In this document: one piece after another, positions 6,363 to 30,033 of the stretch
How positions within the stretch are numbered: position 1 is the first letter of the stretch
How the letters are laid out: each line of letters begins with the position of its first letter
From: Ktedonobacterales bacterium
GTDB taxonomy: Bacteria > Chloroflexota > Ktedonobacteria > Ktedonobacterales > JADMIN01
Assembly: GCA_030167145.1 (NCBI GenBank)
Contig: CP126532.1
Span: forward strand, 2,730,001-2,762,000
Length of the DNA: 32,000 nt
Direction of reading: 5' to 3'
The notes under the pieces: model-generated
Database searches by the model: none
What the model saw: the letters and a program-made list of their open reading frames with translations, nothing else
What the model was told of the DNA's origin: nothing
Position numbers and translations under genes: made by a program

Positions 6363-6420
6363 GGCAAGTGGCCGAAATCTCGATCCGGTCATATGGGCAG
6401 GTTTCGCGGCCATTCGTACG

Positions 6421-7756: not shown

Positions 7757-9745
7757 ATGAGTCTGCGGCATGTGGGAGATGAAGCGAGCTTCGAGCACGA
7801 TGGCGAAGGCGCGGCGTTGCTCGGCGTCCGCCAACAACTGTCCCTCAGCGTGCTGTGGTTCGCGCTCAACTTCCAGTCCGCCGCGCTGCTGCCAATTGTG
7901 CTGCCGGTGCAGATCGCGCTCTTCATCGCCCCGGCTGGCCAGGCGGGCAACGCTCAGCAGGCCGCGTTCCTCGGCTGGATCGGCGCGATTGGCGCGGTGA
8001 TCACGCTGGTCGCCACGCCAATTTCTGGCGCGTTCTCGGACCGCACGACGAGCGGCTTTGGCCGCCGCCGCCCCTACATCCTGCTTGGCGGCGTCCTGCT
8101 GCTGGGTGGGGCGTCGGTGCTGGCGGATCCACAGGACGCGGGCTATCTGATTGCGGGTATCAGCATCTTCTCGGTGGGCAGCGGCATTTGCACCGGTGGC
8201 TATCAGGGCTTGCTGCCCGATCTGGTGCCAGCGGTGCAGCGTGGCGCGGCCTCTGGCTACCTGGGCGTGATGACGATCCTGGGGAATGTGGGCAGTCTGG
8301 CGCTGGCGGGGCTGCTGCTGGGCGTGGTCAGCGCGGGCACGGCGGAGGCCACCTGGCATGGCGCGGCGATCTTCTACCTGCTGACTGGTATTGTGCTGCT
8401 GCTGGGGGTGGGGATTACGCTGGCCAGTGTCCGCGAGACGCCGCTGAGCGCCGCCCCACCGCTGGCCGATACCTTTCGGCAGCGGTTTTCCGCTGCCTGG
8501 CTGGAGCCATTTCGGCATCGCGACTTTACCTGGGTCTTTCTCACGCGCAGCTTCGTGATGCTGGGGCTGAACCTCTTCCTGACCTTCATCGCCTACTACT
8601 TCGCCAGCGTGGCGCACATCCAGAACTTTGCCGCAGCCACCGCCGCCGTTGCCGTGCTGGCGCTGCTCGGCGCGACTGCCAGCGCCTTCGCACTGGGCCA
8701 GATGTCGGACCGCATCGGGCGCGTGGGGCTGGTGTGCTTCTCGTCGGCTTGTATGTCGCTGGCGGCGCTGGCTTTTGTCGTGCTGCCCGCTGGGTTCCCG
8801 CTCTGGCCGCTGGGCGTGGTCTTCGGGTTGGGCTACGGGGCATATGCCAGCGTAGACTGGGCGCTCGCGGTGGATTCGCTGCCGTCGCCCGCCGCCTTCG
8901 GCAAGGATATGGGCATCTGGAGCATCGCCTCGAACCTGCCCGCGATTCTCGCGCCGCTGCTCGGCGGCATCGTTATCACCGTTGCGGGCGCGCTTGGCTA
9001 CACCGCACAGGGCTACCGGGCTATCTTCGCGCTGGCGGTGGTCTTTCTGGTGGCGGGCGCAATTTGCATTTTGCTGGTGCGCGATGCCGTCACGGCACGC
9101 AAGGGCGGCCAGCCACGGGAGCGGCGGGTAGGCTTCGGCTGGCGGCTCGCCTTTCGCACGCGGGCAGGCCAGGCGCGAGGCTTTCTGCGCTTCTGGCCGG
9201 TGTGGGAGCGCCTCAACCGCTGGGTCCATCCGGTACACCCGATCCCCAACGCACCCTATGGGCTGTTCTTGGTCCAGTTCACGCGCTACCGGAGACGGCC
9301 AATTACGCTGCCAGACGGCACTCGTGTTGGTCGGGGCGACGCTATCGCGGTGCTGCACATCAACAACCGGCTGATCGCGCAGGGGGCGGGCAGCGCGAAC
9401 AGCTTCCGGCTGCTGGGCATGATAGCTGGCGATCTGCGCGCGCTGGCGGTATGGTCGGCCACGCCCGGCTTCCCGCCGGAGGTGCGCGCGCTCTTCGGGT
9501 ATACGTTGCTGAACCGCGCCGCGCCGCGATTGGGCTTCACCCTGCGCGAACGCGGGGCAAGTCTGTATAACTGGCTGGACGGCTTCTTCATGATGGGGCT
9601 GCTGGCGCTCTACAACCCTGAAGGAACGCGCCGCCTGCGGCATGGCACCACCTATGGCAGCAGGCCGGTGGAGGTGTGGATGTCGCGCGGGGAGTTGGCG
9701 CGGCGCTATGGCAGTCGTGGTGGTCAGGGCCATGGCGCTGTATAG
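7757..9745 (+). CDS. MFS transporter (GPH-like motif) fused to a C-terminal soluble domain of about 220 aa of uncertain family
   Basis: ATG at 7757. About 12 hydrophobic helices, and the loop motif FSDRTTSGFGRRRPYILLG typical of GPH/MFS carriers. After the last TM helix (about nt 9080) a non-membrane Arg/Trp-rich domain follows (RFWPVWERLNRWVHP...GDAIAVLHINN...LYNWLDGFFMMGLLALYNPEG). Confidence 0.8.
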   Translation: MSLRHVGDEASFEHDGEGAALLGVRQQLSLSVLWFALNFQSAALLPIVLPVQIALFIAPAGQAGNAQQAAFLGWIGAIGAVITLVATPISGAFSDRTTSGFGRRRPYILLGGVLLLGGASVLADPQDAGYLIAGISIFSVGSGICTGGYQGLLPDLVPAVQRGAASGYLGVMTILGNVGSLALAGLLLGVVSAGTAEATWHGAAIFYLLTGIVLLLGVGITLASVRETPLSAAPPLADTFRQRFSAAWLEPFRHRDFTWVFLTRSFVMLGLNLFLTFIAYYFASVAHIQNFAAATAAVAVLALLGATASAFALGQMSDRIGRVGLVCFSSACMSLAALAFVVLPAGFPLWPLGVVFGLGYGAYASVDWALAVDSLPSPAAFGKDMGIWSIASNLPAILAPLLGGIVITVAGALGYTAQGYRAIFALAVVFLVAGAICILLVRDAVTARKGGQPRERRVGFGWRLAFRTRAGQARGFLRFWPVWERLNRWVHPVHPIPNAPYGLFLVQFTRYRRRPITLPDGTRVGRGDAIAVLHINNRLIAQGAGSANSFRLLGMIAGDLRALAVWSATPGFPPEVRALFGYTLLNRAAPRLGFTLRERGASLYNWLDGFFMMGLLALYNPEGTRRLRHGTTYGSRPVEVWMSRGELARRYGSRGGQGHGAV

Positions 9746-11034
9746 CCTCCACTCGCCGTAGCGGCCTCGGCTGAGGATGCGACGGGTACCTGCGGGATGA
9801 GTTGATGGGCGGAGGCGTCAACGGCCAGCACCAGACCGAAGCGCGCGATGAAGGTGGCGTGGTACGGCGGCCCAACCGCACTGATGGTGGGGCCAGCCAG
9901 CGACAGCGCGCAGCCTTCGATGCCGTTGGCGGGGTTTTGCGTGCCCTCGCTGAAGCTCGGCGCGACGCCATTGAGCATACCGGCGGCGATGTAGCAGTAA
10001 ATGTCGCCTACCTGCCCACCTATACGCCGATCCATGCTGCCAGCGATGGCCCACGGCGAGATACTCCAGCCCTGCGCCACATCGTAGATCAGCGGCAGTG
10101 TCAGCGCCCACGAACCGCGCGGCAGCATGATATTGGCCACAGTCGCCGTGGTCAAGGAGGTCTGTGTGACCGAGGAGAAGCGCCAGCCCAGCGTCAGCGG
10201 CGCCTGCACCAGCCACGAGCGCCCATATGCTAGCTGGATCCGGTCCAGATCATAGGGCATCGAGCCGGGGATATTGGGGAAGGGGCAGAGGATGTCATTG
10301 CAGTCTTGCAGACCGCTTTCCGGGCTGAGTGCGATGATCGGTGTGGCAAGCATCGGCTGCCGCGCGACCGCCGCAATGGGCAGGCCGTCGGTGGTGAGAC
10401 CGGCGATGTAGTGCTGGCCCGCTGGCACTGTCGTCCGCAGGCTAAGCGAGAGGTCGCCCAATGCCCGTGTGATCTGGTCGAGCGCCGGGGCGCGTTCGCC
10501 CAGCGGCAGATTGTTCATGCCGAAGGAGACATAGATCAGGAACGCTGGATAGTATGCCTGCCCGCCGACGTTCAGCGGCTCCCCGAATCGCACAGCCTGG
10601 CAGGTGTCGGCGCGCAGCGTAGATTTACTCAGCGTGAGATGACAGGTGTTGGGCATGAAGGGCTTCGCCGTCAGGGTTAGCGTGTTCGCGCCGGGCCGCA
10701 AGTTGGCGAGCACCGAGGTTTGGGCGGCAAAGTGATCGCCGTTGAGGATCACATCAGCGTAAGAAACATTGCTCATGATGTACGCAGTAGAGAGTGATGA
10801 TCTGGTGGCACCGGGCGCGGTGGTCAATGCCCGCGGTATGTGCGCAAGCGCCTGCCACGCGGGCACGAGCGCCAGCAGCACCGCCACGGTGATGAGTGTG
10901 ACCGCGGTCAGTCGTTGGCGGGGTGTCTTGCGCCGCGCCAGCAGCGTATCAAGCTCCACCTGGGCCAGCGTATCTGGTTCGTCAGGCGGCTGCTCTTGTT
11001 GCTCTGCTTCTTCCTTGGTCTCTGGTTCGGGCAT
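9724..11034 (-). CDS. hypothetical membrane-anchored protein (acidic N-terminus, one TM helix, large extracytoplasmic domain)
   Basis: 436-codon ORF. Acidic N-terminus MPEPETKEEAEQQEQPPDEPD, then TM helix LTAVTLITVAVLLALVPAW. No family recognised. Its 3' end overlaps the convergent MFS gene by 22 nt. Confidence 0.6.
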   Translation of the reverse strand: MPEPETKEEAEQQEQPPDEPDTLAQVELDTLLARRKTPRQRLTAVTLITVAVLLALVPAWQALAHIPRALTTAPGATRSSLSTAYIMSNVSYADVILNGDHFAAQTSVLANLRPGANTLTLTAKPFMPNTCHLTLSKSTLRADTCQAVRFGEPLNVGGQAYYPAFLIYVSFGMNNLPLGERAPALDQITRALGDLSLSLRTTVPAGQHYIAGLTTDGLPIAAVARQPMLATPIIALSPESGLQDCNDILCPFPNIPGSMPYDLDRIQLAYGRSWLVQAPLTLGWRFSSVTQTSLTTATVANIMLPRGSWALTLPLIYDVAQGWSISPWAIAGSMDRRIGGQVGDIYCYIAAGMLNGVAPSFSEGTQNPANGIEGCALSLAGPTISAVGPPYHATFIARFGLVLAVDASAHQLIPQVPVASSAEAATASGGYTAPWP

Positions 11035-11062: not shown

Positions 11063-11119
11063 GGCGGACAGAATGTCTGCCGCAGAGAAGGGCGCCCGCC
11101 GCAGACAGGAATGTCTGCG
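11063..11119. repeat. two adjacent copies of the GGCAGACA-GGAA-TGTCTGCC hairpin repeat
   Basis: GGCGGACA-GAA-TGTCTGCC at 11063-11081 and CGCAGACA-GGAA-TGTCTGCG at 11100-11119, in the intergenic region between 11034 and 11156. Other copies are at 13736-13755, 14064-14083 and 29143-29162, with a divergent one at 21763-21782. Confidence 0.75.
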
Positions 11120-11155
11120 CTACCACAATATGCGAACACATGGGCTTAGGTCTCC

Positions 11156-13411
11156 TTACTTTACAGGCGCGAGGGTGACGGGGATGGCGTTGAGAATGGC
11201 GTTGCCGGAGAGCGGGTCTACCGCGTCATCGGGGATCAGCCGGTTGATGCTGACGCCCGCGTGTTCGGCGGCGATGCGCATCTGGCTGCCGGGCACGCCA
11301 TGGCCCCAGCCGTGGGGCAGGCTGACGACGCCGGGCATCATCTCATCGGTGATATGGACAGGCGCGGCGACGCTGCCAGCAGCCGAGGTGACACGGGCGG
11401 CGACGCCTTCGGCCAGATTCAGCCGTGCGGCGTCTTGCGGGTGGACCAGCAGCACGCAGGGGTCATCGCCCTTCACCAGCACGTGCAGGTTGTGCATCCA
11501 AGAGTTGTTCGAGCGCAGGTCGCGCCGACCAATGAGCACGACCGGCGGGCGGGGGTGATCCAGCGCGGCGCGGAGCCGCTCTACGTCGGCGACGATCAGC
11601 GGTGGGGCTAGCTCGACCTTGCCGGATGGGGTGCGCAGCACTTCGGGGATGCGCGGCTGGAGCGGGCCAAGGTCTATGCCGTGGGGCGCGGCCTCAAGCT
11701 GGGCCAGTGTCAGTCCGTCAGGCCGCGCGCCGAAGGCATCGCCATAGGGTCCGGTGCGCAGCAGGAAGTCGAGCAGGCGTTCGGGGCCACGGCGCGGCTG
11801 GAGCGCGGCGAGCAGTTCCGCGCTGTCGCGGCCCTCCACCGGCGAGCCAGCGGTGCGGACCTCGCGCTGGACGAGTTGGGACGCGACCATATCATCTATG
11901 ACGGCGGCGGGGATGGTGGCGTCCTGACCGGCGGCGATGGCGGTCAGCCGCAGCAGTATCTCCCACTCATCAAGCTGGCCTGACTCGCGCGGGAAGACTG
12001 GCGGCGAATAGTGAGCGATGTTGCGGATGGAGAGCTGATAGAAGGCGAGGTCGTAGTGGGCGCGTTGCAGGGGCGAGGGTGGTGGCAGGATGACATCGGC
12101 GTGGCGGGTGGTCTCGTTGAGGTAGCAATCTACGCTGACCATGAAATCGAGCTGGCCGAGCGCGGCATTCAGCCGGTCGCCGTTGGGCGCGCTGAGCGCG
12201 GGATTGCCGGCGATGGTGATGAGGGCGCGCACCTGACCATCGCCGGGGGTGGTGATTTCTTCGGCGAGGCAGACGGTGGGCAGCTCGCCGTAGATCTGCG
12301 GCAGGCCGCGCACACGGCTCTTCTTGAAGCCGGGGCGAATGCCCTTGCCCGTGCCGGGGAGGCCGCTGGTGTTGCGTGCGCCCGCCGCCGCCCTGGGGAA
12401 GAGCGCGCCGCCGGGGCGGTCGAGGTTGCCGGTGAGGGCGTTGAGCACATCGCCAAGCCAACTGGTGAGCGTGCCGAACTGCTGGGTGCATGCGCCGATG
12501 CGCGTGTAGACGGCGGCGCGGGGCGCGGTGGCTAGCTCGCGGGCGATGCGGCGCGTGACGTCGGGGGTGATGCCACAGGTGGCGGCGACGGCCTCTGGGG
12601 TGAAGGGTGCGGCGAGGGCGCGGAGTTCTTCGATGCCGTTGAGATGTTCGGTAAGATGCGCGGGATTGACGAGACCCTCGGCAAAGAGGGTGTGGACGAG
12701 GGCAAAGAGGAAGTGCGGGTCTGTGCCGGGGTGGATGAAGAGATGCTCGCTGGCTTCGGCGGCGGTGCGTGTGCGGCGGGGGTCCACGACGACGACGCGG
12801 CCCCCACGCGCGAGCAATGCGCGGATGCGCCCACGCATGTCGGGCGCGGTCATCAGGCTGCCATTGGAGACGAGCGGGTTCGCACCGAGAATGAGCAGGT
12901 AGTCGGCGCGGTCTACGTCGGGGATGGGGATGCTGAGCATCGTGCCGAACATGTAGCCAGCGGAGACCTGTTTGGGCATCTGGTCGAGGGTGCTGGCGGT
13001 GTAGATGTTGCGGGTGCCAAGGGCGCGGAGCAGCGGGGTGTTGTAGAGCTGGCCGGAGAGGTTGTGGACGTTGGGGTTGCCGAGGTAGACGGCGACGGCG
13101 TCGCGTCCGTATTGTTGCTGGATGGGGGTGAGACGGCGGGCGATTTCGGCGAAGGCGTCATCCCAGGAGACGGCGCGCCACTGGCCGCCCTGGCGCAGCA
13201 TGGGGCCGCGCAGGCGGTCGGGGTCGGCGTCGAGTTCTTTGAGGCTGTAGGCTTTGGGGCAGATGTAGCCGTGGCTGAAGACATCTGCGGGGTCGCCACG
13301 AATGCCGGTGATCTGGCGGCCAGTGGTGGTGATTTCGAGGCCACAGGTGGCTTCGCAGAGTGGGCAGGTGGCGTAGGTGACCTGGGATGGCTCAGGCGTC
13401 GAAGGCGTCAT
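11156..13411 (-). CDS. molybdopterin-dependent oxidoreductase (bis-MGD / MopB superfamily), substrate unknown
   Basis: N-terminal 4Fe-4S Mo/W-bis-MGD-type cysteine cluster (CPLCEATCGLEI...GYICPKA). Length 751 aa. The C-terminal half and GMMPGVVSLPHGWGH tail resemble the molybdopterin dinucleotide-binding region. Intact, with no in-frame stop. Confidence 0.9.
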   Translation of the reverse strand: MTPSTPEPSQVTYATCPLCEATCGLEITTTGRQITGIRGDPADVFSHGYICPKAYSLKELDADPDRLRGPMLRQGGQWRAVSWDDAFAEIARRLTPIQQQYGRDAVAVYLGNPNVHNLSGQLYNTPLLRALGTRNIYTASTLDQMPKQVSAGYMFGTMLSIPIPDVDRADYLLILGANPLVSNGSLMTAPDMRGRIRALLARGGRVVVVDPRRTRTAAEASEHLFIHPGTDPHFLFALVHTLFAEGLVNPAHLTEHLNGIEELRALAAPFTPEAVAATCGITPDVTRRIARELATAPRAAVYTRIGACTQQFGTLTSWLGDVLNALTGNLDRPGGALFPRAAAGARNTSGLPGTGKGIRPGFKKSRVRGLPQIYGELPTVCLAEEITTPGDGQVRALITIAGNPALSAPNGDRLNAALGQLDFMVSVDCYLNETTRHADVILPPPSPLQRAHYDLAFYQLSIRNIAHYSPPVFPRESGQLDEWEILLRLTAIAAGQDATIPAAVIDDMVASQLVQREVRTAGSPVEGRDSAELLAALQPRRGPERLLDFLLRTGPYGDAFGARPDGLTLAQLEAAPHGIDLGPLQPRIPEVLRTPSGKVELAPPLIVADVERLRAALDHPRPPVVLIGRRDLRSNNSWMHNLHVLVKGDDPCVLLVHPQDAARLNLAEGVAARVTSAAGSVAAPVHITDEMMPGVVSLPHGWGHGVPGSQMRIAAEHAGVSINRLIPDDAVDPLSGNAILNAIPVTLAPVK

Positions 13412-13482
13412 GCGGGGTTCCCCTCTCTGGTCGGTGGCGCATGTGGGCGCGGATGATGGCGGTGGCAGGAACGTTGTTCTCC

Positions 13483-13488
13483 ATTATA
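13483..13488 (-). promoter_or_regulatory. candidate -10 box (TATAAT on the minus strand) upstream of the molybdoenzyme gene
   Basis: Plus-strand ATTATA at 13483-13488 reads TATAAT on the minus strand, about 70 nt upstream of ATG 13411. No convincing -35. Confidence 0.3.
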
Positions 13489-13513
13489 GCGGTGGTGGGC
13501 GACGATACCGCCT

Positions 13514-14140
13514 CGGCCATACATGGCCGGAGCACGACGGCGGGGCATGAATGCCTGAATGAGCGCGGTGGCCGATGTGGCCGATATGCGGATACTGGCA
13601 GTTGCCGAAATGGCCGATTTTTCGATTTGCGCGGAGGGCGGGATGGGTGGTATAGGAGGCTTGCGGCATGAATGCCGCAGGTAATCGCGACGGGACAGGA
13701 GTTGCCGGAGTTGCCGATTCTGCCGATTTTTGGATGGCAGGCAGGAATGCGTGCCCCGCCAGTGACCGAAATGGCAGAGTTGCCGAAATAGCCGATTTTT
13801 GGATTTTGCGTGGAATGCAGTTGCCGATTCTGCCGATTTTCGCGGTTGGGTGGGGGTGAATGACAGGATGTGACGGGAGATGGGGGGAGTTTTTTCGCCG
13901 TTTTCGCCGCAATTTTGGGTTGCGCGCAAGATGAGCAGTTGCCGATTCTGCCGATTTTTGGATTTGTGTGGAGGGCGGGATGAGAGGTAAGGGAAGCTCG
14001 CGGCATGAATGCTGCGGGTAATCCTGATGCGGGGCAGTGACCAAAATGGCCGATGTGACCGAAGGCAGACAGGAATGTCTGCCCCACCGATATGGCCGAT
14101 ATGGCCGATATGTGGGAGTTGCCGATGCTGCCGATTTTTT
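13514..14140. repeat. non-coding mosaic repeat island: AGTTGCCGA-N4/5-GCCGATTTTTGGATTT modules, 9-bp tandem units, a repeat pair of about 97 bp, and palindromes
   Basis: AGTTGCCGA-type module starts at 13600, 13699/13710, 13778, 13818, 13937 and 14116. 9-bp tandems at 13568-13585 and 14087-14113. 13600-13694 is repeated at 13937-14034. Irregular spacing. Confidence 0.85.
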
Positions 14141-14330
14141 TTGTTGGCATTGGTGTGCGTCCTTCGCAGTGATGGGAGTGGGCGCGAGGTGGGTTGGATT
14201 GGTGGCAAGGGAAGTGTAGCATGCGGCGGGATGGGGCGAGGGGTGCGGGCCGGTCACATGCGGACGGATGGGGACATGGGATGTTGTGGGCGGTGGTCCT
14301 GCGCATGGTGGGTGGCGAAGCAGCGGATAG

Positions 14331-14720
14331 CTACAGGCGCGGGTCAACTGGCTCGGTTTCGAGGGCGAGGACGGCGAAGACGGCCTGATGGACGCGCCAG
14401 AGGGGTTCGCGGCGCACGAAACGCTCTATTGCTTCGACGCCGAGGGCGAATTCGCGGATGGCGAGGGCACGCTTGGCGGCGAGGCCGCGTTTGCGCAGGC
14501 GTTCGAGGTTGGGTGGCGCGGTGTAGTCGGGGCCGTAGATGATGCGCAGGTATTCGCGGCCACGGCACTTGACGGCGGGCTGGAGGATGCCGCGCTTGCC
14601 GCGCACGATGAAGTCGAGTGGCTTGACGACCATGCCTTCACCGCCGTGCCCGGTCATCTCTTCCCACCAGGCGGTTGCGGCGGCGCAGTCATCCGGGTCG
14701 AGCAGGTTGACAAGACGATG
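14331..14720 (-). pseudogene. 3' remnant of a polynucleotide kinase-phosphatase (Pnkp, RNA-repair) gene: only the end of the ligase-like domain is left
   Basis: Translation LVNLLDPDDCAAATAWWEEMTGHGGEGMVVKPLDFIVRGKRGILQPAVKCRGREYLRIIYGPDYTAPPNLERLRKRGLAAKRALAIREFALGVEAIERFVRREPLWRVHQAVFAVLALETEPVDPRL. It contains nucleotidyltransferase motif IV (EGMVVKP) and a motif V-like element (AVKCRG), plus the ...EPVDPRL terminus I recall for bacterial Pnkp. About 130 of an expected approximately 850 codons remain. Upstream, the frame runs into the TMEM175-like gene in a different frame and reads Pro/Arg/His-rich nonsense. Confidence 0.6.
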
Positions 14721-14734
14721 CGGAGCTATGGCGG

Positions 14735-15421
14735 CTATGGTGTGGATGGGGCGGATTTGATGCGGTGGGGGAGCGCAAAGAAGAGGGCGAGGATGGCATT
14801 GAGCACAAAGCTGACGGGGACGCTGATGAAGGCGAGGGCGACACAGGCGAGGTAGAGCAGTGGGCCGAAGCGGTAGCGGCGGGTGATGCTGGCGGCGAAA
14901 TCGGAGGGCAGGTGGGTATCGAGGAGACGGTTGCCAGCGGCGGCGTAGAGCCAGAGGGCATTGAAGGCGATGGCGGTGAGGAAGTAGGCGCCGCTGTAGA
15001 TGACCATGGCGACGATCTGGTTGCGGCTGTAGAGCGCGGCGCTGATGTGGGGATCGCGCGGGGCGATGTAGTCGGCGAGCAGGGCGGTGGGAAAGGGGAT
15101 GAAGGTGATGAAGAACAGCAACAGGCCGTTGATGAAGAGGAAGGCGTGATCGGTGCGGACGATGACTTTGAACATATTGTGATGGTTGATCCACATGATG
15201 AGGATGAAGGCGAAGCTGATGAGGTAGGCGAGGAAAGCGGGCCACTGGCGCAGCAATGCGGCGAGGAGGTCGCCGGATTGCCCCAGGTCGCTTTGTAGGG
15301 GGACGCGCAGCGTGAGGACGAGGAGTGTGACGGCGATGGCGAAGACGCCATCGCTGAAGGCTTCGACGCGGCCGGTGTCGCGTTCGGCGGCTGTGGTGGT
15401 TTGGGGGTCGTCTACGCGCAT
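14735..15421 (-). CDS. TMEM175/DUF1211 family membrane protein (putative K+ channel)
   Basis: RxxxFSD signature in the first helix (GRVEAFSDGVFAIAVTLLVL). Six hydrophobic helices, 228 aa. Confidence 0.85.
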   Translation of the reverse strand: MRVDDPQTTTAAERDTGRVEAFSDGVFAIAVTLLVLTLRVPLQSDLGQSGDLLAALLRQWPAFLAYLISFAFILIMWINHHNMFKVIVRTDHAFLFINGLLLFFITFIPFPTALLADYIAPRDPHISAALYSRNQIVAMVIYSGAYFLTAIAFNALWLYAAAGNRLLDTHLPSDFAASITRRYRFGPLLYLACVALAFISVPVSFVLNAILALFFALPHRIKSAPSTP

Positions 15422-25218: not shown

Positions 25219-25399
25219 CGCGCGCCTCCCGCTTCCGCATGCCGTGACAACATCACGTAGTGTAGTCGCTGCTGGCGGGCGCGTCAAATTACCCCACCCA
25301 TGCTCCCAGTACGGTGGGGCATGTGCTACACTGGCGGGGACGGACAGCAATGTGGCGCGGCCAGATAGGGGAGTGGCAGATTCGGAGGAGGCGCCTATT

Positions 25400-27051: not shown

Positions 27052-28653
27052 CTATCCGGCTGTTACCGAGGTGCTTGCGCCATTGGCGAGCAGCCGTGTC
27101 TGCCAGTAGAACGCTCCGTCGCTGGCGCGCAATGCGGTGATGGTGTTGAACCTGGCCGTGCCCAATGAGAGACCTGACGCGCTATAGATTCCCTGGATGA
27201 AGACCACGCCTTGCGCTTCGGCCTCGGGCGTGAGCACGTAGTTCGCCTGCGCCTGCTGCCAGAGGCGTGCGCCGTCGCTCGCCTGGAACACGTAGAGCGT
27301 GTTGCGGCCACCAAGGTAGAGCGCGTCGTCGGTGATCAAGTTGGTATTCTGTCTGTTCGGCCCGAAGTTCTGGATGGTGTAGCAGGGCAGGGTACGCTGC
27401 CAGTGAATCGCGCCGGTGGCGGTATCCAGCGCGTAGAGTGTATCGGTGGGCGGATTGCCGGCCAGCGCGGGGTAGTTGCTACACGCGCTGCCGGGCACCT
27501 CCACATACACGACGCCATTACGCATGCCTTCGATGCTGACCGAAGCTTTGGGAAAGCGCCAGAGCAGCTTGCCATCAGCAGCACGCAGCGCCACCAGACC
27601 ATCGGACGGCTGGGAGCTGACGTAGACGGTGTCGTCCGTCACGGTGAGGGTGCAGGTGTTCGTGGTATCGCTGCTTGATGTGGGGGGAGCGTACCGCCAG
27701 AGAGGCTTGCCGTCGGCTATGCGGGTGGCGAGGGCATTGCCATCTTGCTCGCAGGTATAAAGTGTGTCGCCGTGAAGGACGTATTGATTTGTGGCGTAGG
27801 GGTAGACTGGCGCTGGCAGGGTTGTGGTGAGCAGGGCTGTTTTGCGGAGCATCGTGCCGTCGCTTATGTTCAGGGCTACTGATTGCCATATCGTCTGTTG
27901 GGTGGTCGGTTGGGGCGTGGAGTTTTCGGAGCTGATGACATAGAGCGTATCGCCGAGCACCTCGAAGGTATAGACGTTGAAGGGGTAGGAGTTATGCCAG
28001 AGCAGCGCGCCATCGGTGGCGCGGACTGCCGAGAGGACGCTCGTGGGACTGTTGTTGGTACTGCCATTGCTGTAGCCGAAGTTGTAGAGGATGCCGCCGA
28101 AGATGGCTGGCTGGGTGTTGAAGTCCAGCAGGCCGGGCACTGTCGTATGCCACAGTACCGTGCCATCGGACGCACGCGCCGCGACAAGCTGCTGATTCTG
28201 ACGGGCGCCGTCGCTGCTATAGGTCGCGCTGCTGGTATAGGTATAGATGACGCCGTTGGCCAGCAGCGGCGCACCGAGCATGATGTCTGGATGGTTCGCG
28301 GGGGCGCTGCGCCAGCGGATCGAGCCGTCGGTCGCGCGCAGGGCATGGAGGGCGCTCGCGCCGTCGCATTGCCAGACGCCGAGGAAATTGCGGGCGCAGA
28401 CGCTGCCGGTGACAAAGACATTGAGCGCGGCATCCACGGGCGCGGGGCGTGGCTGCGGGTCGTTATTGCCCCAGCCCACATGCCCGGTGACGGAGAGCAG
28501 CGCAAGGACTGAGGCGCTGGCGAGCGTGAGCGCGACGACGCGATAGGTGATTTTGCTCGCGCGCGCCGCGGCGGCGCGCGCGCCGAACGTCAGCGCCACC
28601 GCCAGGAGCAGTCCTAGCCCCGCCAACACCAGAACTTCGATCACCAGCGCCAT
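27052..28653 (-). CDS. PQQ-like (BamB/YVTN-type) beta-propeller repeat protein with an N-terminal TM anchor
   Basis: At least 8 repeats of the (D/T)G-x-x-x-W motif (DGSIRWRS, DGTVLWH, DGALLWH, DGKPLWRY, DGKLLWRF, TGAIHWQ, DGARLWQQ, DGAFYWQ). N-terminal helix VLVLAGLGLLLAVALTF. Confidence 0.85.
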   Translation of the reverse strand: MALVIEVLVLAGLGLLLAVALTFGARAAAARASKITYRVVALTLASASVLALLSVTGHVGWGNNDPQPRPAPVDAALNVFVTGSVCARNFLGVWQCDGASALHALRATDGSIRWRSAPANHPDIMLGAPLLANGVIYTYTSSATYSSDGARQNQQLVAARASDGTVLWHTTVPGLLDFNTQPAIFGGILYNFGYSNGSTNNSPTSVLSAVRATDGALLWHNSYPFNVYTFEVLGDTLYVISSENSTPQPTTQQTIWQSVALNISDGTMLRKTALLTTTLPAPVYPYATNQYVLHGDTLYTCEQDGNALATRIADGKPLWRYAPPTSSSDTTNTCTLTVTDDTVYVSSQPSDGLVALRAADGKLLWRFPKASVSIEGMRNGVVYVEVPGSACSNYPALAGNPPTDTLYALDTATGAIHWQRTLPCYTIQNFGPNRQNTNLITDDALYLGGRNTLYVFQASDGARLWQQAQANYVLTPEAEAQGVVFIQGIYSASGLSLGTARFNTITALRASDGAFYWQTRLLANGASTSVTAG

Positions 28654-28683
28654 TGTTGACTACCTTTCTCATCGCAGCAGAGT

Positions 28684-28825
28684 GGGCGGTTGAAACCGCG
28701 CCTGAATGGCGTGCCGCCGCTCCGCTGCGCTCACAGCCCGCTCCACTCCTACACGTCGCTAGCTGCGCCGCGTGCTGGCCCCGCCTGCGCGGGTTGGAAA
28801 CAGGAGTGCGCAGCACCGCATCTCA
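28684..28825. repeat. second copy of the composite repeat GGGCGGTTGAAACCGCGCC ... CCCGCCTGCGCGGG ... GGAAACAGGAGTGCGCAGCACC
   Basis: GGGCGGTTGAAACCGCGCC at 28684-28702 is identical to 21705-21723. CCCGCCTGCGCGGG at 28780-28793 matches 21746-21759. Confidence 0.7.
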
Positions 28826-29006
28826 CCGCACCCTTCGCCAGTATATACGCCAGTTTGCGTTGTGTTCGCACAGAGCGGGTTTGCAATGCGTGCGCGGATG
28901 CGACATAGTCAATGGGATGGCGGACCTACCCCGCAGCCCTGCCTCGGAACCCCGCCTCGGAACGGCTCAGCGGGGCTGCGCGCTCGGCGGGGCTTCGCTT
29001 CGCTTG

Positions 29007-29122
29007 CCCTTCCCTACGAGGGAAGGGGAGTTTAAAGAGCGTGCGGTTGAAAGCGGGCAACGGCGTCCGGCCAACGGGCGTCCGGTGGACGCCCCTACGG
29101 ATGGCGTGTGGGCGCGAAAGCC
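29007..29122 (+). repeat. approximately 120-bp composite repeat, copy B (hairpin CCCTTCCCT-ACG-AGGGAAGGG ... hairpin GGGCGTCC-GGT-GGACGCCC ... CCTACGGATGGCGTGTGGGCGCGAAAGCC)
   Basis: Collinear with 26502-26622. The second hairpin differs from copy A by paired (compensatory) changes, CAC/GTG versus TCC/GGA. Confidence 0.8.
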
Positions 29123-29142
29123 GCGCACGCGGTGGTGGCGAA

Positions 29143-29162
29143 GGCAGACAGGAATGTCCGCC
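29143..29162. repeat. GGCAGACA-GGAA-TGTCCGCC hairpin repeat copy
   Basis: The 28-nt block GAAGGCAGACAGGAATGTCCGCCCCACC (29141-29168) differs at 1 position from 14061-14088. Confidence 0.8.
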
Positions 29163-29232
29163 CCACCAGGCGACGCGCGGGTGGTTGAATGCCCTGGTGG
29201 GTACATATGCGGTAGTTGAGAAGGAGAGGGAC

Positions 29233-30033
29233 ATGCAAGGTTCTTACAGCTTCCAGCCGAATGTGCTGATGCAACTCCTCGACGATCTGGACTCTGGCGC
29301 GCTGAAGATTGTGGATCTGACGACGCCGCTTGGACCGGATACGGTGGTGATTGATCTGCCGCCGCAGTTCGCGCCGTCGCCGGGCCTGACGGTGACAGAG
29401 ATCGCGCGCTATGATGACCGGGGTCCAGCGTGGTATTGGAATACGCTGACTATGGGTGAGCATACCGGCACACATTTCGATGCGCCGATCCACTGGGTGA
29501 CGGGGAAGGATTTGCCCAACAATGCGACCGATACCATTCCGCCGCGCAAGTTCATCGGCCCGGCGTGCGTGATAGATGTGACGGCGGATGTAGCGCAGAA
29601 TCCCGATTTCTTGCTTTCGGTGGAGCGGGTGAAGGCATGGGAGGGCGAGCACGGGCGCATCTCGGCGGGGGCGTGGGTGCTGCTGCGCAGCGGCTGGAGC
29701 GCGCGCACCAGCAGAGATGCGTTCCTAAATGTGGGGGCGGACGGCGCGCATAGCCCTGGCTTCCATCAGGATACGTCGGCGTTTCTGGTGAATGAGCGCG
29801 ACATTTTGGGTGTAGGGGTGGAGACGGTGGGCACGGATGCAGGCCAGGCGGGCGGTTTTACGCCGCCGTTCCCGAATCATACGACGATGCACGGGGCGGG
29901 CAAGTTCGGCATCACGAGCTTGGTCAACCTGGACCAGTTGCCGCCGACGGGGGCTGTGGTGATCGCTGCGCCGCTGAAGATTATCGGGGGATCGGGCAGC
30001 CCGCTGCGGGTGATTGCTATCGCACCGGTGTAG
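29233..30033 (+). CDS. cyclase family protein (kynurenine formamidase-like fold)
   Basis: ATG at 29233 after AAGGAGAGGG. HxGTHxDxPxH motif (EHTGTHFDAPIHW). The first 107 codons of the track ORF lie in repeat DNA and are discounted. Confidence 0.9.
   Translation: MQGSYSFQPNVLMQLLDDLDSGALKIVDLTTPLGPDTVVIDLPPQFAPSPGLTVTEIARYDDRGPAWYWNTLTMGEHTGTHFDAPIHWVTGKDLPNNATDTIPPRKFIGPACVIDVTADVAQNPDFLLSVERVKAWEGEHGRISAGAWVLLRSGWSARTSRDAFLNVGADGAHSPGFHQDTSAFLVNERDILGVGVETVGTDAGQAGGFTPPFPNHTTMHGAGKFGITSLVNLDQLPPTGAVVIAAPLKIIGGSGSPLRVIAIAPV

Follow-up and report, generated by a model that had tools for sequence, protein, structure and literature searches.

A gene-like mosaic-repeat island upstream of a molybdoenzyme gene is one of several copies on a Ktedonobacterales chromosome

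The 5.07-Mb chromosome of a Ktedonobacterales bacterium carries at least five copies of a gene-like mosaic-repeat unit, and the segment between a Pnkp remnant and a molybdoenzyme gene is among them. The family is marked by conserved start signals, an absent coding signature, a depletion of stop trinucleotides on the sense strand and a constant orientation relative to the adjacent gene. We tentatively read these islands, at somewhat less than even confidence, as a Ktedonobacterales-specific family of transcribed and ribosome-traversed arrays, MIRU-like in layout, which combine 9-bp CGGC repeats with REP-like hairpins and would be kept open against downstream polarity. Positions given without a locus name refer to the window, the whole 32,000-nucleotide stretch that was analysed, and features are on the minus strand, the sense strand of the island, unless otherwise stated. 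The other copies on the host chromosome are L084 (2.684 Mb), L090 (1.794 Mb), L091 (4.092 Mb) and L088 (NCBI OJF49_004802), and related islands in other organisms are L085, L089, L067, L075 and L077.

Anatomy of the island

The island spans 13412–14330, from the stop of the Pnkp remnant to the ATG of the molybdoenzyme gene, and its sense strand is rich in C and A. Its 5′ boundary is the motif CATGCTACACT (14213–14223), invariant in five aligned islands, which contains an extended −10-like box, TGCTACACT (14213–14221). A Shine-Dalgarno-like GCGAAGGA (14160–14167), conserved across islands, stands 9 nt ahead of an ATG (14150–14148) that opens a frame of 252 codons (13392–14150), with its stop 17 nt into the molybdoenzyme gene.

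The modules comprise direct CGGC repeats with a 9-bp period (A, AAAAATCGGCAGAATCGGCAACT; C, GCGGCGAAAACGGCGAAAA; and simple 9-mers) and REP-like hairpins headed by GTAG or GTGG (H, V5 and D), and larger repeat units, U of about 95 nt and V of about 89 nt, are arranged head-to-tail. In the sense direction, the start codon is followed by an A module recognized by pattern match (AAAAATCGGCAGCATCGGCAACT, 14117–14139), a 9-bp tandem of 2.9 copies (CATATCGGC, 14087–14112) and the REP-like H hairpin with its GTGG head (GGCAGACA-TTCC-TGTCTGCC, 14064–14083, no strand assigned), a module that is also dispersed outside the islands. V unit copy 2 (13935–14023) consists of a V5 hairpin (GCAGCATTCATGCCGC, within 14000–14023), V3 (13960–13984) and an A module (13937–13959), and has homologous units in L085, L090, L089 and L091. 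The U unit (13817–13912), with a C module (13892–13910), a C-rich spacer (13842–13866) and an A module (13819–13841), is 87% identical to that of L084 over 99 nt and is present also in L085, L088 and L090. Beyond it lie a variant A module, again a pattern match (AAAAATCGGCTATTTCGGCAACT, 13778–13800), an imperfect H hairpin (13736–13755, no strand assigned), and an A module (13709–13731) joined to a twofold 9-bp tandem (CGGCAACTC, 13698–13716) in one block (13698–13731). V unit copy 1 (13598–13686) repeats the arrangement of V5 (GCGGCATTCATGCCGC, within 13663–13686), V3 (13623–13647) and A (13600–13622), and is followed by another twofold 9-bp tandem (ATCGGCCAC, 13568–13585) and by the gene-proximal D1 + D end module (GGCATTCATGCCCC...TGCTCCGGCCATGTATGGCCGAG, hairpin included, 13512–13556), with which the arrays of L084, L090 and L089 likewise end.

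Past the array, a TATAAT hexamer (13483–13488), 72 nt 5′ of the molybdoenzyme ATG, is a candidate for that gene's own promoter as read from the sequence, and its TAA provides the sole stop of one minus-strand frame. Its counterparts past the arrays of L090, L084 and L085 are the hexamers TATAGT, TATACT and TACAAT. At 13408–13411, an ATGA overlap unites the stop of the frame 13408–14208 with the molybdoenzyme start codon.

A preliminary description of this DNA had seen a mosaic of nucleotide repeats in the region, and this was borne out. The module AGTTGCCGAWNNNGCCGATTTTT matched at 13600, 13709, 13778, 13819, 13937 and 14117, with a further three-mismatch copy at 13700, all on the plus strand, against 0 expected by chance (100 shuffles), and 15 of the 58 GCCGAT hexamers of the window fall within 13571–14135, every one on the plus strand. 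Likewise, 9-bp tandems were recovered at 13568–13585, 13698–13716, 13892–13909 and 14087–14112, and the long internal duplication joins 13598–13686 with 13935–14023 (89 nt, 83% identity). The two reported copies of the hairpin GGCAGACAGGAATGTCTGCC are present, exact at 14064–14083 and with 3 mismatches at 13736–13755, and it also occurs outside the island on the minus strand: as two H-type hairpins oriented as in the island (11064–11119, with starts at 11064 and 11100), and at 29143–29162 as a 29-nt match including the flanks. A module fragment claimed at 6369–6385 was undetected at up to 3 mismatches and may have been a chance resemblance. The claimed extreme strand asymmetry was partly upheld, since the plus-strand G+T (0.63) and GC skew (0.34) both exceed those of every other 919-nt segment of the window, but they have the sign seen in the flanking minus-strand genes (skew 0.22–0.32) and are only modestly higher.

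Copies, relatives and orientation

Further genomic copies had been suggested as a check on the preliminary description, and the modules do occur elsewhere in the genome rather than at this locus alone; the same co-oriented modules are present in other soil Ktedonobacterales contigs. BLAST comparisons between and within islands gave 329 matches, all 329 plus/plus, and the module order is the same from island to island. In the orthologous pair L088/L089, both flanks are kept while the interior is reshuffled. Over about 107 kb of the 5.07-Mb chromosome examined, A and C modules were confined to islands, and H was found at four non-island sites in three intergenic regions. The closest homologues of the molybdoenzyme itself (75–80% identity) lie in other, non-syntenic gene neighbourhoods without modules.

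A pattern scan of genome contigs returned at least 60 single matches in unrelated taxa, and among the matches listed only L048, from a Ktedonobacterales MAG, was a true relative. In metagenomes (a collection without the host contig), the scan gave 17 matches, 5 of them true relatives, and a synthetic three-frame query added one further island only. The viral contigs, plasmids and phages searched gave no match. Most of the additional islands were located via called ORFs, so islands with long open frames are favoured in this sample. Two single cases place the modules in coding context: in the sucA linker of L048, A modules of about 100 nt occupy codons 55–83 in frame, flanked by the Pfam domains 2-oxogl_dehyd_N and E1_dh, and the L091 island reads in frame into nnr.

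Without exception, an island's sense strand matches the strand of the gene next to it or downstream of it. Because two host islands only 60 kb apart are oppositely oriented, the orientation tracks transcription, and an account based on replication direction was rejected. A promoter-like box, Shine-Dalgarno (SD) sequence and ORF precede a co-directional gene in the window, L090 and L091; no co-directional gene follows the L088/L089 island. Stop/start overlaps of the ATGA or GTGA kind occur in the window (13408–13411), L090 (10519–10522) and L085 (793–796) and are absent in L084. In the window and L090, this overlap is made by a frame other than the start-codon frame.

Start signals, open frames and competing explanations

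The motif CATGCTACACT, an SD and an ATG or GTG align in five islands (the window, L090, L088, L089 and L091), with the SD conserved as GCG(A/T)AAGGA(G) and a leader of about 45–60 nt between box and start region. The ORFs that follow are 237–838 codons long. Judged by its sequence, TGCTACACT resembles an extended −10 promoter box, and the same 9-mer precedes two ordinary genes, 67 nt (window 25324) and 45 nt (L091 12253) before their ATG. L084 has no clear SD-ATG, though it is co-directional with a gene, and L085 lacks its 5′ end. A scan for sigma-70 and terminator consensus sequences gave no match, but it needs a −35 box and is thus blind to extended −10 promoters; between the window island and the molybdoenzyme gene, no terminator-like site was found. 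The earlier view that there is no credible gene here holds as far as a conserved protein is concerned, but it overlooked a gene-like minus-strand 5′ end (TGCTACACT, GCGAAGGA and the ATG at 14148–14150) that paralogues and orthologues of the island retain.

The three long minus-strand ORFs (13392–14306, 13408–14208 and 13484–14347) lie where they had been placed. Their openness had been attributed to the G+T richness of the plus strand, which proved not to be the sole cause, because there is a specific depletion of stop trinucleotides and, of the frames, it is the one with the start codon that stays open. Within 13500–14250, the minus strand has 0 stop trinucleotides versus 8.6 ± 2.4 in dinucleotide-preserving shuffles, none of 1000 being as low, and across islands the sense strand has 0–6 stops versus 9–18 in dinucleotide shuffles. 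In 4.6 kb of arrays, observed and expected counts are 0 and 30 for TAA, 1 and 29 for TGA, and 3 and 6.6 for TAG. Among the 64 trinucleotides these rank 1, 2 and 7 in depletion, and their reverse complements rank 60, 30 and 18. The 74 distinct module variants contain 2 stops, against about 20 in simulation, and array-internal stops number 14 in the two other frames and 0 in the start-codon frame. Among tandem repeats, 39 of 45 have a period that is a multiple of 3, and 36 of 45 a period of 9. AAG is depleted to the same extent as the stops, so another compositional rule acts too. A stop-free founder sequence could account for part of the depletion, and the islands of the host clade are not independent samples, because the same few module families are common to all. 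In the distant high-GC relatives L067, L075 and L077, found by DNA pattern, the TAG/TGA depletion was not reproduced: TAG is enriched in the REP heads, and TGA is mildly depleted.

We consider an explanation as untranslated junk or selfish DNA somewhat unlikely. It supposes a BIME- or REP-like cluster of small repeats in permissive intergenic spots, with open frames arising from C/A-rich composition and stop-less founder modules, and a 5′ end that is simply part of the repeated unit. It is consistent with the H hairpins (GTAG or GTGG head, 8–10 bp stem) that stand alone in other intergenic regions, with compensatory changes among hairpin variants, with a short-read assembly that breaks inside an A module, and with the rapid turnover of the interior, as well as with the absent coding signature, the sense-strand stops of the distant relatives and the non-independence of the islands. 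However, the depletion holds against first-order Markov sequences as well as dinucleotide shuffles, is strand-specific and places TAA and TGA at the very head of the 64 trinucleotides, and the existing stops avoid the start-codon frame by 14 to 0. Five islands also have their invariant promoter-like box, SD and ATG at one and the same end, which this explanation does not predict, and the islands are strictly co-directional with genes, whereas the REPs of BIMEs alternate.

An improbable alternative is a real but fast-evolving protein family, repetitive, basic, rich in Cys, His and Pro and disordered, whose exact sequence would be unimportant, as in a structural or sacrificial role. Conservation of the start signals (promoter-like box, SD and start codon) and of long open frames suits it, as do the 39 of 45 tandem periods in multiples of 3, and both the JGI and NCBI pipelines call such ORFs hypothetical proteins. 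In contrast, the codon-position signature is absent: GC at positions 1/2/3 of the window ORF is 0.55/0.58/0.60, against a GC3 of 0.76–0.88 in the neighbouring genes. All modules are read in all three phases, nearly evenly relative to the start-codon frame (A 7/9/12, C 3/4/3, H 2/4/4), and orthologous islands have no colinear protein in common. Searched with the long ORFs, Pfam gave no family above the curated cut-off (Croc_4 was a sub-threshold chance match, 20 bits versus 25) and NCBIfam gave no match. Among 1.84 billion representative proteins there were just six matches at an E-value of 0.001 or below, namely one fragment of the query ORF, one unrelated tandem repeat (P0127, rejected as a relative) and four repeat-derived ORFs of the same kind. 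The translations thus mirror the nucleotide repeats, as first described, and an ordinary protein-coding gene is not supported: start signals are present, but codon-position bias, a constant phase and homologous domains are not.

Still less probable is a DNA-level array in which 9-bp-spaced ATCGGCA repeats and phased A-tracts bind a regulator, nucleoid or partition protein, or bend the DNA 5′ of the neighbour's promoter. The density of a single short direct repeat in one orientation (15 GCCGAT in 565 bp), the A-tracts in most modules and the position of arrays directly upstream of the −10-like hexamers of downstream genes would fit. The iteron or centromere array of the preliminary description nevertheless conflicts with at least five dispersed islands on one chromosome, all co-oriented with local transcription and none adjoining rep or par genes, which were not found within 10 kb. 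Moreover, one of the islands is not followed by a gene, the sucA gene itself contains a copy, the 9-bp spacing is out of helical phase, and the strand-specific stop depletion and the conserved SD-ATG would be left unexplained.

We regard a functional non-coding RNA, either structured or a sponge with many AUCGGCA (or antisense UGCCGAU) motifs, as very unlikely. The conserved promoter-like box, the many copies of one short motif, the compensatory changes in hairpin stems and an antisense strand that folds somewhat better than shuffles (z −2.5) point towards it. The structured transcript proposed earlier found no backing in Rfam, where the whole window at the gathering threshold and the island at an E-value of up to 10 gave two chance-level hits only, and the sense strand, which bears the promoter-like box, does not differ from shuffles in its folding (z −0.65). 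Orthologous islands are not colinear in their interior, and a conserved SD-ATG with stop avoidance would be unexpected in such an RNA. A CRISPR array was rejected, as the "spacers" are repeated between loci, the A copies are degenerate, and the gene lists contain no cas families within 10 kb.

A read-through model and its counterparts in known systems

Considering these results, we favour, tentatively, the ribosome-traversed array. Each unit begins with the TGCTACACT box, a leader, an SD and an ATG or GTG, and continues as co-oriented short modules over a length between a few hundred and about 900 nt. Transcription would run the same way as that of the neighbouring gene, and ribosomes would enter at the conserved start codon and probably run through the island without making a meaningful protein. 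The array is reshuffled fast, probably by slippage and unequal recombination between A modules, while its ends stay conserved. The peptide would be irrelevant and selection would maintain the open frame; as rearrangements keep altering the phase of the modules, only modules that are stop-free in all three phases would survive. The sense RNA is rich in C (0.40) and poor in G (0.19), with a C/G ratio of 2.05, and is unstructured by the folding analysis above; ribosomes on such RNA would avert Rho-type polarity. Read-through could also bring ribosomes to a co-directional downstream gene, as proposed for MIRUs, although the −10-like hexamers past the arrays suggest that the genes downstream may be served by promoters of their own and may not depend on it.

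MIRUs are units of tens of bp, repeated head to tail in intergenic DNA and co-oriented with flanking genes; they contain ORFs with a stop that may overlap the start codon of the next gene (ATGA, −4 spacing), so that the repeat is carried with little effect on expression (PMC12548453). The islands share the head-to-tail units of the 40–100 bp class (U and V) and the orientation of the adjacent gene in all cases; ATGA/GTGA overlaps are present in the window, L090 and L085, in the frames described above. In contrast to the tandem copies of a single unit in MIRUs, they mix A, C, U, V, H and D modules. They also differ in bringing a promoter-like box, SD and start codon of their own, in being free of stops whichever of the three phases is read, and in their phylum, Chloroflexota. 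With the REPs and BIMEs of enterobacteria and pseudomonads, the islands have in common short imperfect palindromes that bear a GTAG-type head (the H hairpins), are scattered through transcribed extragenic DNA and are joined with other short motifs into mosaic clusters. Unlike BIMEs, in which REPs alternate, their modules are all co-oriented, the main ones are direct 9-bp repeats instead of palindromes, and translation start signals and open frames are present. Rickettsia palindromic elements persist as in-frame insertions within protein-coding genes (PMC10969869), which recalls the in-frame modules of the sucA linker and the island that continues into nnr. Those elements, however, are palindromes of 100–150 bp that code for a single conserved peptide in a single phase, whereas the modules of the islands, as direct repeats, can be read in any phase and are mostly found outside genes.

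Another counterpart is the translated leader ORF through which Rho-dependent polarity is controlled. Polarity arises by the loading of Rho onto untranslated RNA (PMC12548453). The islands resemble such leaders in their putative promoter, SD and ORF upstream of a co-directional gene, their C-rich, G-poor and unstructured RNA, and, for the window island, the lack of an intrinsic terminator in between. The leader peptides of known systems are short, at tens of codons, and each occurs only in its own operon, whereas the island ORFs of 237–838 codons are multi-copy repeats beside unrelated genes, and a role of Rho here is putative.

A further-reaching idea, which we consider doubtful, is that the islands are previously undescribed "frame-agnostic" translated elements: multi-copy, hyper-variable, equipped with their own promoter and ribosome-binding site, and selected only for openness in every frame. 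Passed through by ribosomes, they would serve the adjacent gene as insulators or ribosome-delivery tracks, or act as a standing source of random peptides for new genes, with the peptide drifting freely.

Stop-free islands already mislead gene callers, as seen in a JGI Nnr with 225 additional N-terminal residues and an NCBI 418-aa "hypothetical protein" extending antisense across the gene next to it. Recognizing them would improve Ktedonobacterales annotation, and their repeats also break short-read assemblies. If ribosomes do traverse the arrays, selection would act on translatability alone and not on a protein. The islands would then be a clean natural case for transcription–translation coupling and polarity in Chloroflexota, and would show how repeat DNA lives beside and inside genes and how random open frames able to seed genes may originate.

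Repeat architecture and further islands

The host is a Ktedonobacterales MAG with a 5.07-Mb contig, on which window position x corresponds to 2,730,000 + x, and sense denotes the window minus strand, reading AAAAATCGGCAGAATCGGCAACT. In the window island (13412-14330), the repeat module AGTTGCCGAWNNNGCCGATTTTT (23 nt) was recovered with 0-1 mismatch at the six sites expected from the preliminary description (13600, 13709, 13778, 13819, 13937 and 14117) and once more with 3 mismatches; every copy lay on the plus strand, and 100 shuffles gave no match. Fifteen GCCGAT hexamers occupy 13571-14135 in a single orientation. The 9-bp tandem units also held, four perfect ones being found. The long internal duplicate is real, at 83% identity, with a length of 89 nt rather than about 97 bp, and one of the two hairpin copies GGCAGACAGGAATGTCTGCC is exact, the other imperfect. 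The module fragment reported at 6369-6385 was undetectable in the pattern search. The strand asymmetry, described as extreme, does reach the window maximum of GC skew (0.34, with G+T 0.63), but the flanking minus-strand genes have skews of 0.22-0.32 with the same sign, and the island is not far above them.

Four more islands were found on the same chromosome, at 2.684 Mb (L084), 1.794 Mb (L090), 4.092 Mb (L091) and NCBI locus OJF49_004802 (L088). Consistent with a multi-copy module, a short-read contig assembled from this organism and carrying the molybdoenzyme gene (L002, Logan SRR22113990) ends inside an A module, at window ~13728. Protein-database searches with the long frames gave only ORFs called over similar DNA. 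Such ORFs also revealed islands outside the host (L085, and L089, orthologous to L088), and a pattern scan of metagenomes brought in L067, L075 and L077, high-GC relatives that are more distant. The majority of the extra islands were reached via called ORFs, which biases the sample to open frames, and host-clade islands are non-independent samples because the modules are common to them. No module match was found in the viral contigs, plasmids and phages searched, and the nearest molybdoenzyme homologues had neither synteny with the window nor modules.

All similarities within and between islands are plus/plus. The arrays consist of A modules (AAAAATCGGCAGAATCGGCAACT in sense), C modules (GCGGCGAAAACGGCGAAAA), simple 9-mers with a CGGC core, and the hairpin modules H (GTAG or GTGG head), V5 (GCGGCA-TTCA-TGCCGC, with compensatory variants GTGGCA..TGCTAC and GCGGCC..GGCCG) and D (gene-proximal). 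An A module terminates each of the larger units U (~95 nt) and V (~89 nt), and 36 of the 45 island tandem repeats have period 9. Between the orthologous L088 and L089, both flanks are kept and the interior is reshuffled. H also stands alone at 11064, 11100 and 29143 in the window and at 13832 in L084. In L067 (200-400) and L075 (85-110 and 1080-1100), a different companion module, GCGGAAGGAAACGGAAACGAAC, reaches up to 7 copies and occurs with the A module and with REP-like hairpins that have a GTAG head.

In the gap separating two co-oriented genes, 9724-11034 and 11156-13411, the H-type hairpins GGCGGACAGAATGTCTGCC and CGCAGACAGGAATGTCTGCG stand in tandem (window 11064-11122), oriented as in the island. 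A second long non-coding stretch (28660-29235), upstream of minus-strand gene 27052-28653, contains REP-like GGCGTCC-GGT-GGACGCC followed by CCTACGG, other short hairpins, an H copy (29143-29162) and 13-, 17- and 15-nt tandems. The Pnkp remnant (14331-14657), directly after the TMEM175-like gene (14735-15421), is limited to roughly the final 127 residues of the ligase domain, and no hen1 gene was found there. In L084, 9535-9660 holds tandems of 9-bp GACAATAAC (x5) and 11-bp CATCATGTATC (x4) with a HicB-like antitoxin remnant, with the island on one side and a ParE-like gene pair on the other.

Stop codons in the sense strand

As previously described, all three minus-strand frames are open across the window island; TTA, CTA and TCA are absent from 13500-14250, against 8.6 +/- 2.4 in dinucleotide-preserving shuffles. 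Six islands have 0-6 sense-strand stops each, compared with 9-18 in dinucleotide shuffles. In 4.6 kb of arrays, TAA occurs 0 times, TGA once and TAG 3 times, where a first-order Markov model expects 30, 29 and 6.6, and in depletion they rank 1, 2 and 7 among the 64 trinucleotides (reverse complements 60, 30 and 18). Among the 74 distinct module variants 2 stops were counted, where random substitution would give about 20, and all 14 in-array stops lie outside the start-codon frame ((2/3)^14 = 0.003, assuming equally likely frames). These results show that stops have been purged from the sense strand of the arrays. The depletion of TAG and TGA was not reproduced in the distant relatives. The depletion of AAG equals that of the stops in strength (4 observed, 35 expected; seven islands, 4.6 kb), and GGG, GAT and AGG are likewise low in these arrays, a scarcity that might mean that Shine-Dalgarno-like sequences are avoided inside them.

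Start signals, neighbouring genes and gene-borne modules

Five islands (window, L090, L088, L089 and L091) align at their 5' ends, sharing CATGCTACACT with no variation, GCG(A/T)AAGGA and, 7-11 nt past the latter, ATG or GTG; in the window these lie on the minus strand at 14213-14223, 14160-14167 (Shine-Dalgarno-like) and 14148-14150 (ATG). The SD-ATG of L084 is not clear. TGCTACACT, which matches the extended -10 box TGnTAnnnT, also lies 67 nt ahead of the ATG of a TPP-enzyme subunit gene (window 25324-25332) and 45 nt ahead of that of a 340-codon BNR-like protein gene (L091 12253-12261), both ordinary genes with a good Shine-Dalgarno, and is probably a favoured extended -10 box of the lineage. 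Since the 5' features align and the box also precedes ordinary genes, the sequence makes a working promoter and translation start in the window island very probable. ORFs from the aligned starts span 252 codons in the window, then 278, 418, 237 and 838, the last continuing in frame into nnr.

The sense strand is the adjacent gene's strand in all islands. Directly downstream lie genes for the molybdoenzyme, a Ser/Thr kinase, an ABC transporter, nnr and a hydantoinase-like protein; the L088/L089 island lies 3' of a co-oriented gene with a convergent gene opposite and has no co-directional gene downstream. Because two islands of the host that are separated by 60 kb point in opposite directions, orientation tracks transcription, and replication-set orientation was rejected. 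No terminator-like site was found between the window island and its gene, and in the window, L090 and L085, ATGA or GTGA at the downstream start codon ends one island frame. The arrays are followed by -10-like hexamers, which suggest that downstream genes may have their own promoters.

Modules also occur inside genes. In L048, a Ktedonobacterales MAG, the N-terminal linker of sucA carries in frame a stretch of about 100 nt that holds two A modules; together with a V3-like spacer, these modules (L048 5611-5700; also L065 and L078) occupy codons 55-83 of 2-oxoglutarate dehydrogenase E1, read as ...EKSAESATRS...FPAESATS.... The JGI Nnr call in L091 (10001-12223, P0130) is too long at its N terminus by ~225 residues translated from the island, and the NCBI 418-aa hypothetical protein of L088 (10053-11307, P0123, OJF49_004802) starts in the island and crosses a neighbouring 134-aa gene antisense; both are annotation artefacts of stop-free islands.

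Interpretation: possibly translated arrays

We tentatively favour a multi-copy, lineage-specific unit that would be transcribed and traversed by ribosomes, its peptide being irrelevant. Our confidence stays below even because the sample is ORF-biased, the islands are non-independent, AAG is also depleted, distant relatives carry stops, -10-like hexamers follow the arrays, one island lacks a downstream gene and one start is unclear. Untranslated BIME-like junk is a somewhat unlikely reading. The island elements resemble REP/BIME, MIRU and RPE as interspersed mosaic repeats, and the modules within genes recall RPEs, which are tolerated there (PMC10969869); the islands differ in that they bring their own start signals, are strictly co-oriented, repeat CGGC with a 9-bp period and avoid stops in all frames. 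We found no description of such elements in the literature.

A real family of disordered proteins, which would also have open frames, is improbable. Normal coding sequence is disfavoured because codon-position GC in the island ORF is flat (~0.55/0.58/0.60; neighbouring genes have GC3 of 0.76-0.88) and modules use all three phases relative to the start-codon frame (A 7/9/12, C 3/4/3, H 2/4/4); no conserved peptide was found across modules. That the co-oriented repeats form a DNA-binding array is less probable still. A functional RNA is highly improbable: folding of the sense RNA does not exceed that of shuffles (z -0.65; antisense somewhat better, z -2.5), and Rfam gave no match.

On the favoured reading, module phases would continually shift as A modules slip and recombine unequally with one another, and, where an open frame is needed, only modules stop-free in every phase would persist. 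The likely reason for such a need is that an open frame would spare the C-rich, G-poor, unstructured RNA entering the next gene from Rho-type polarity. The arrays may perhaps also bring ribosomes to that gene, and the same logic of polarity and ribosome delivery has been proposed for MIRUs (PMC12548453).
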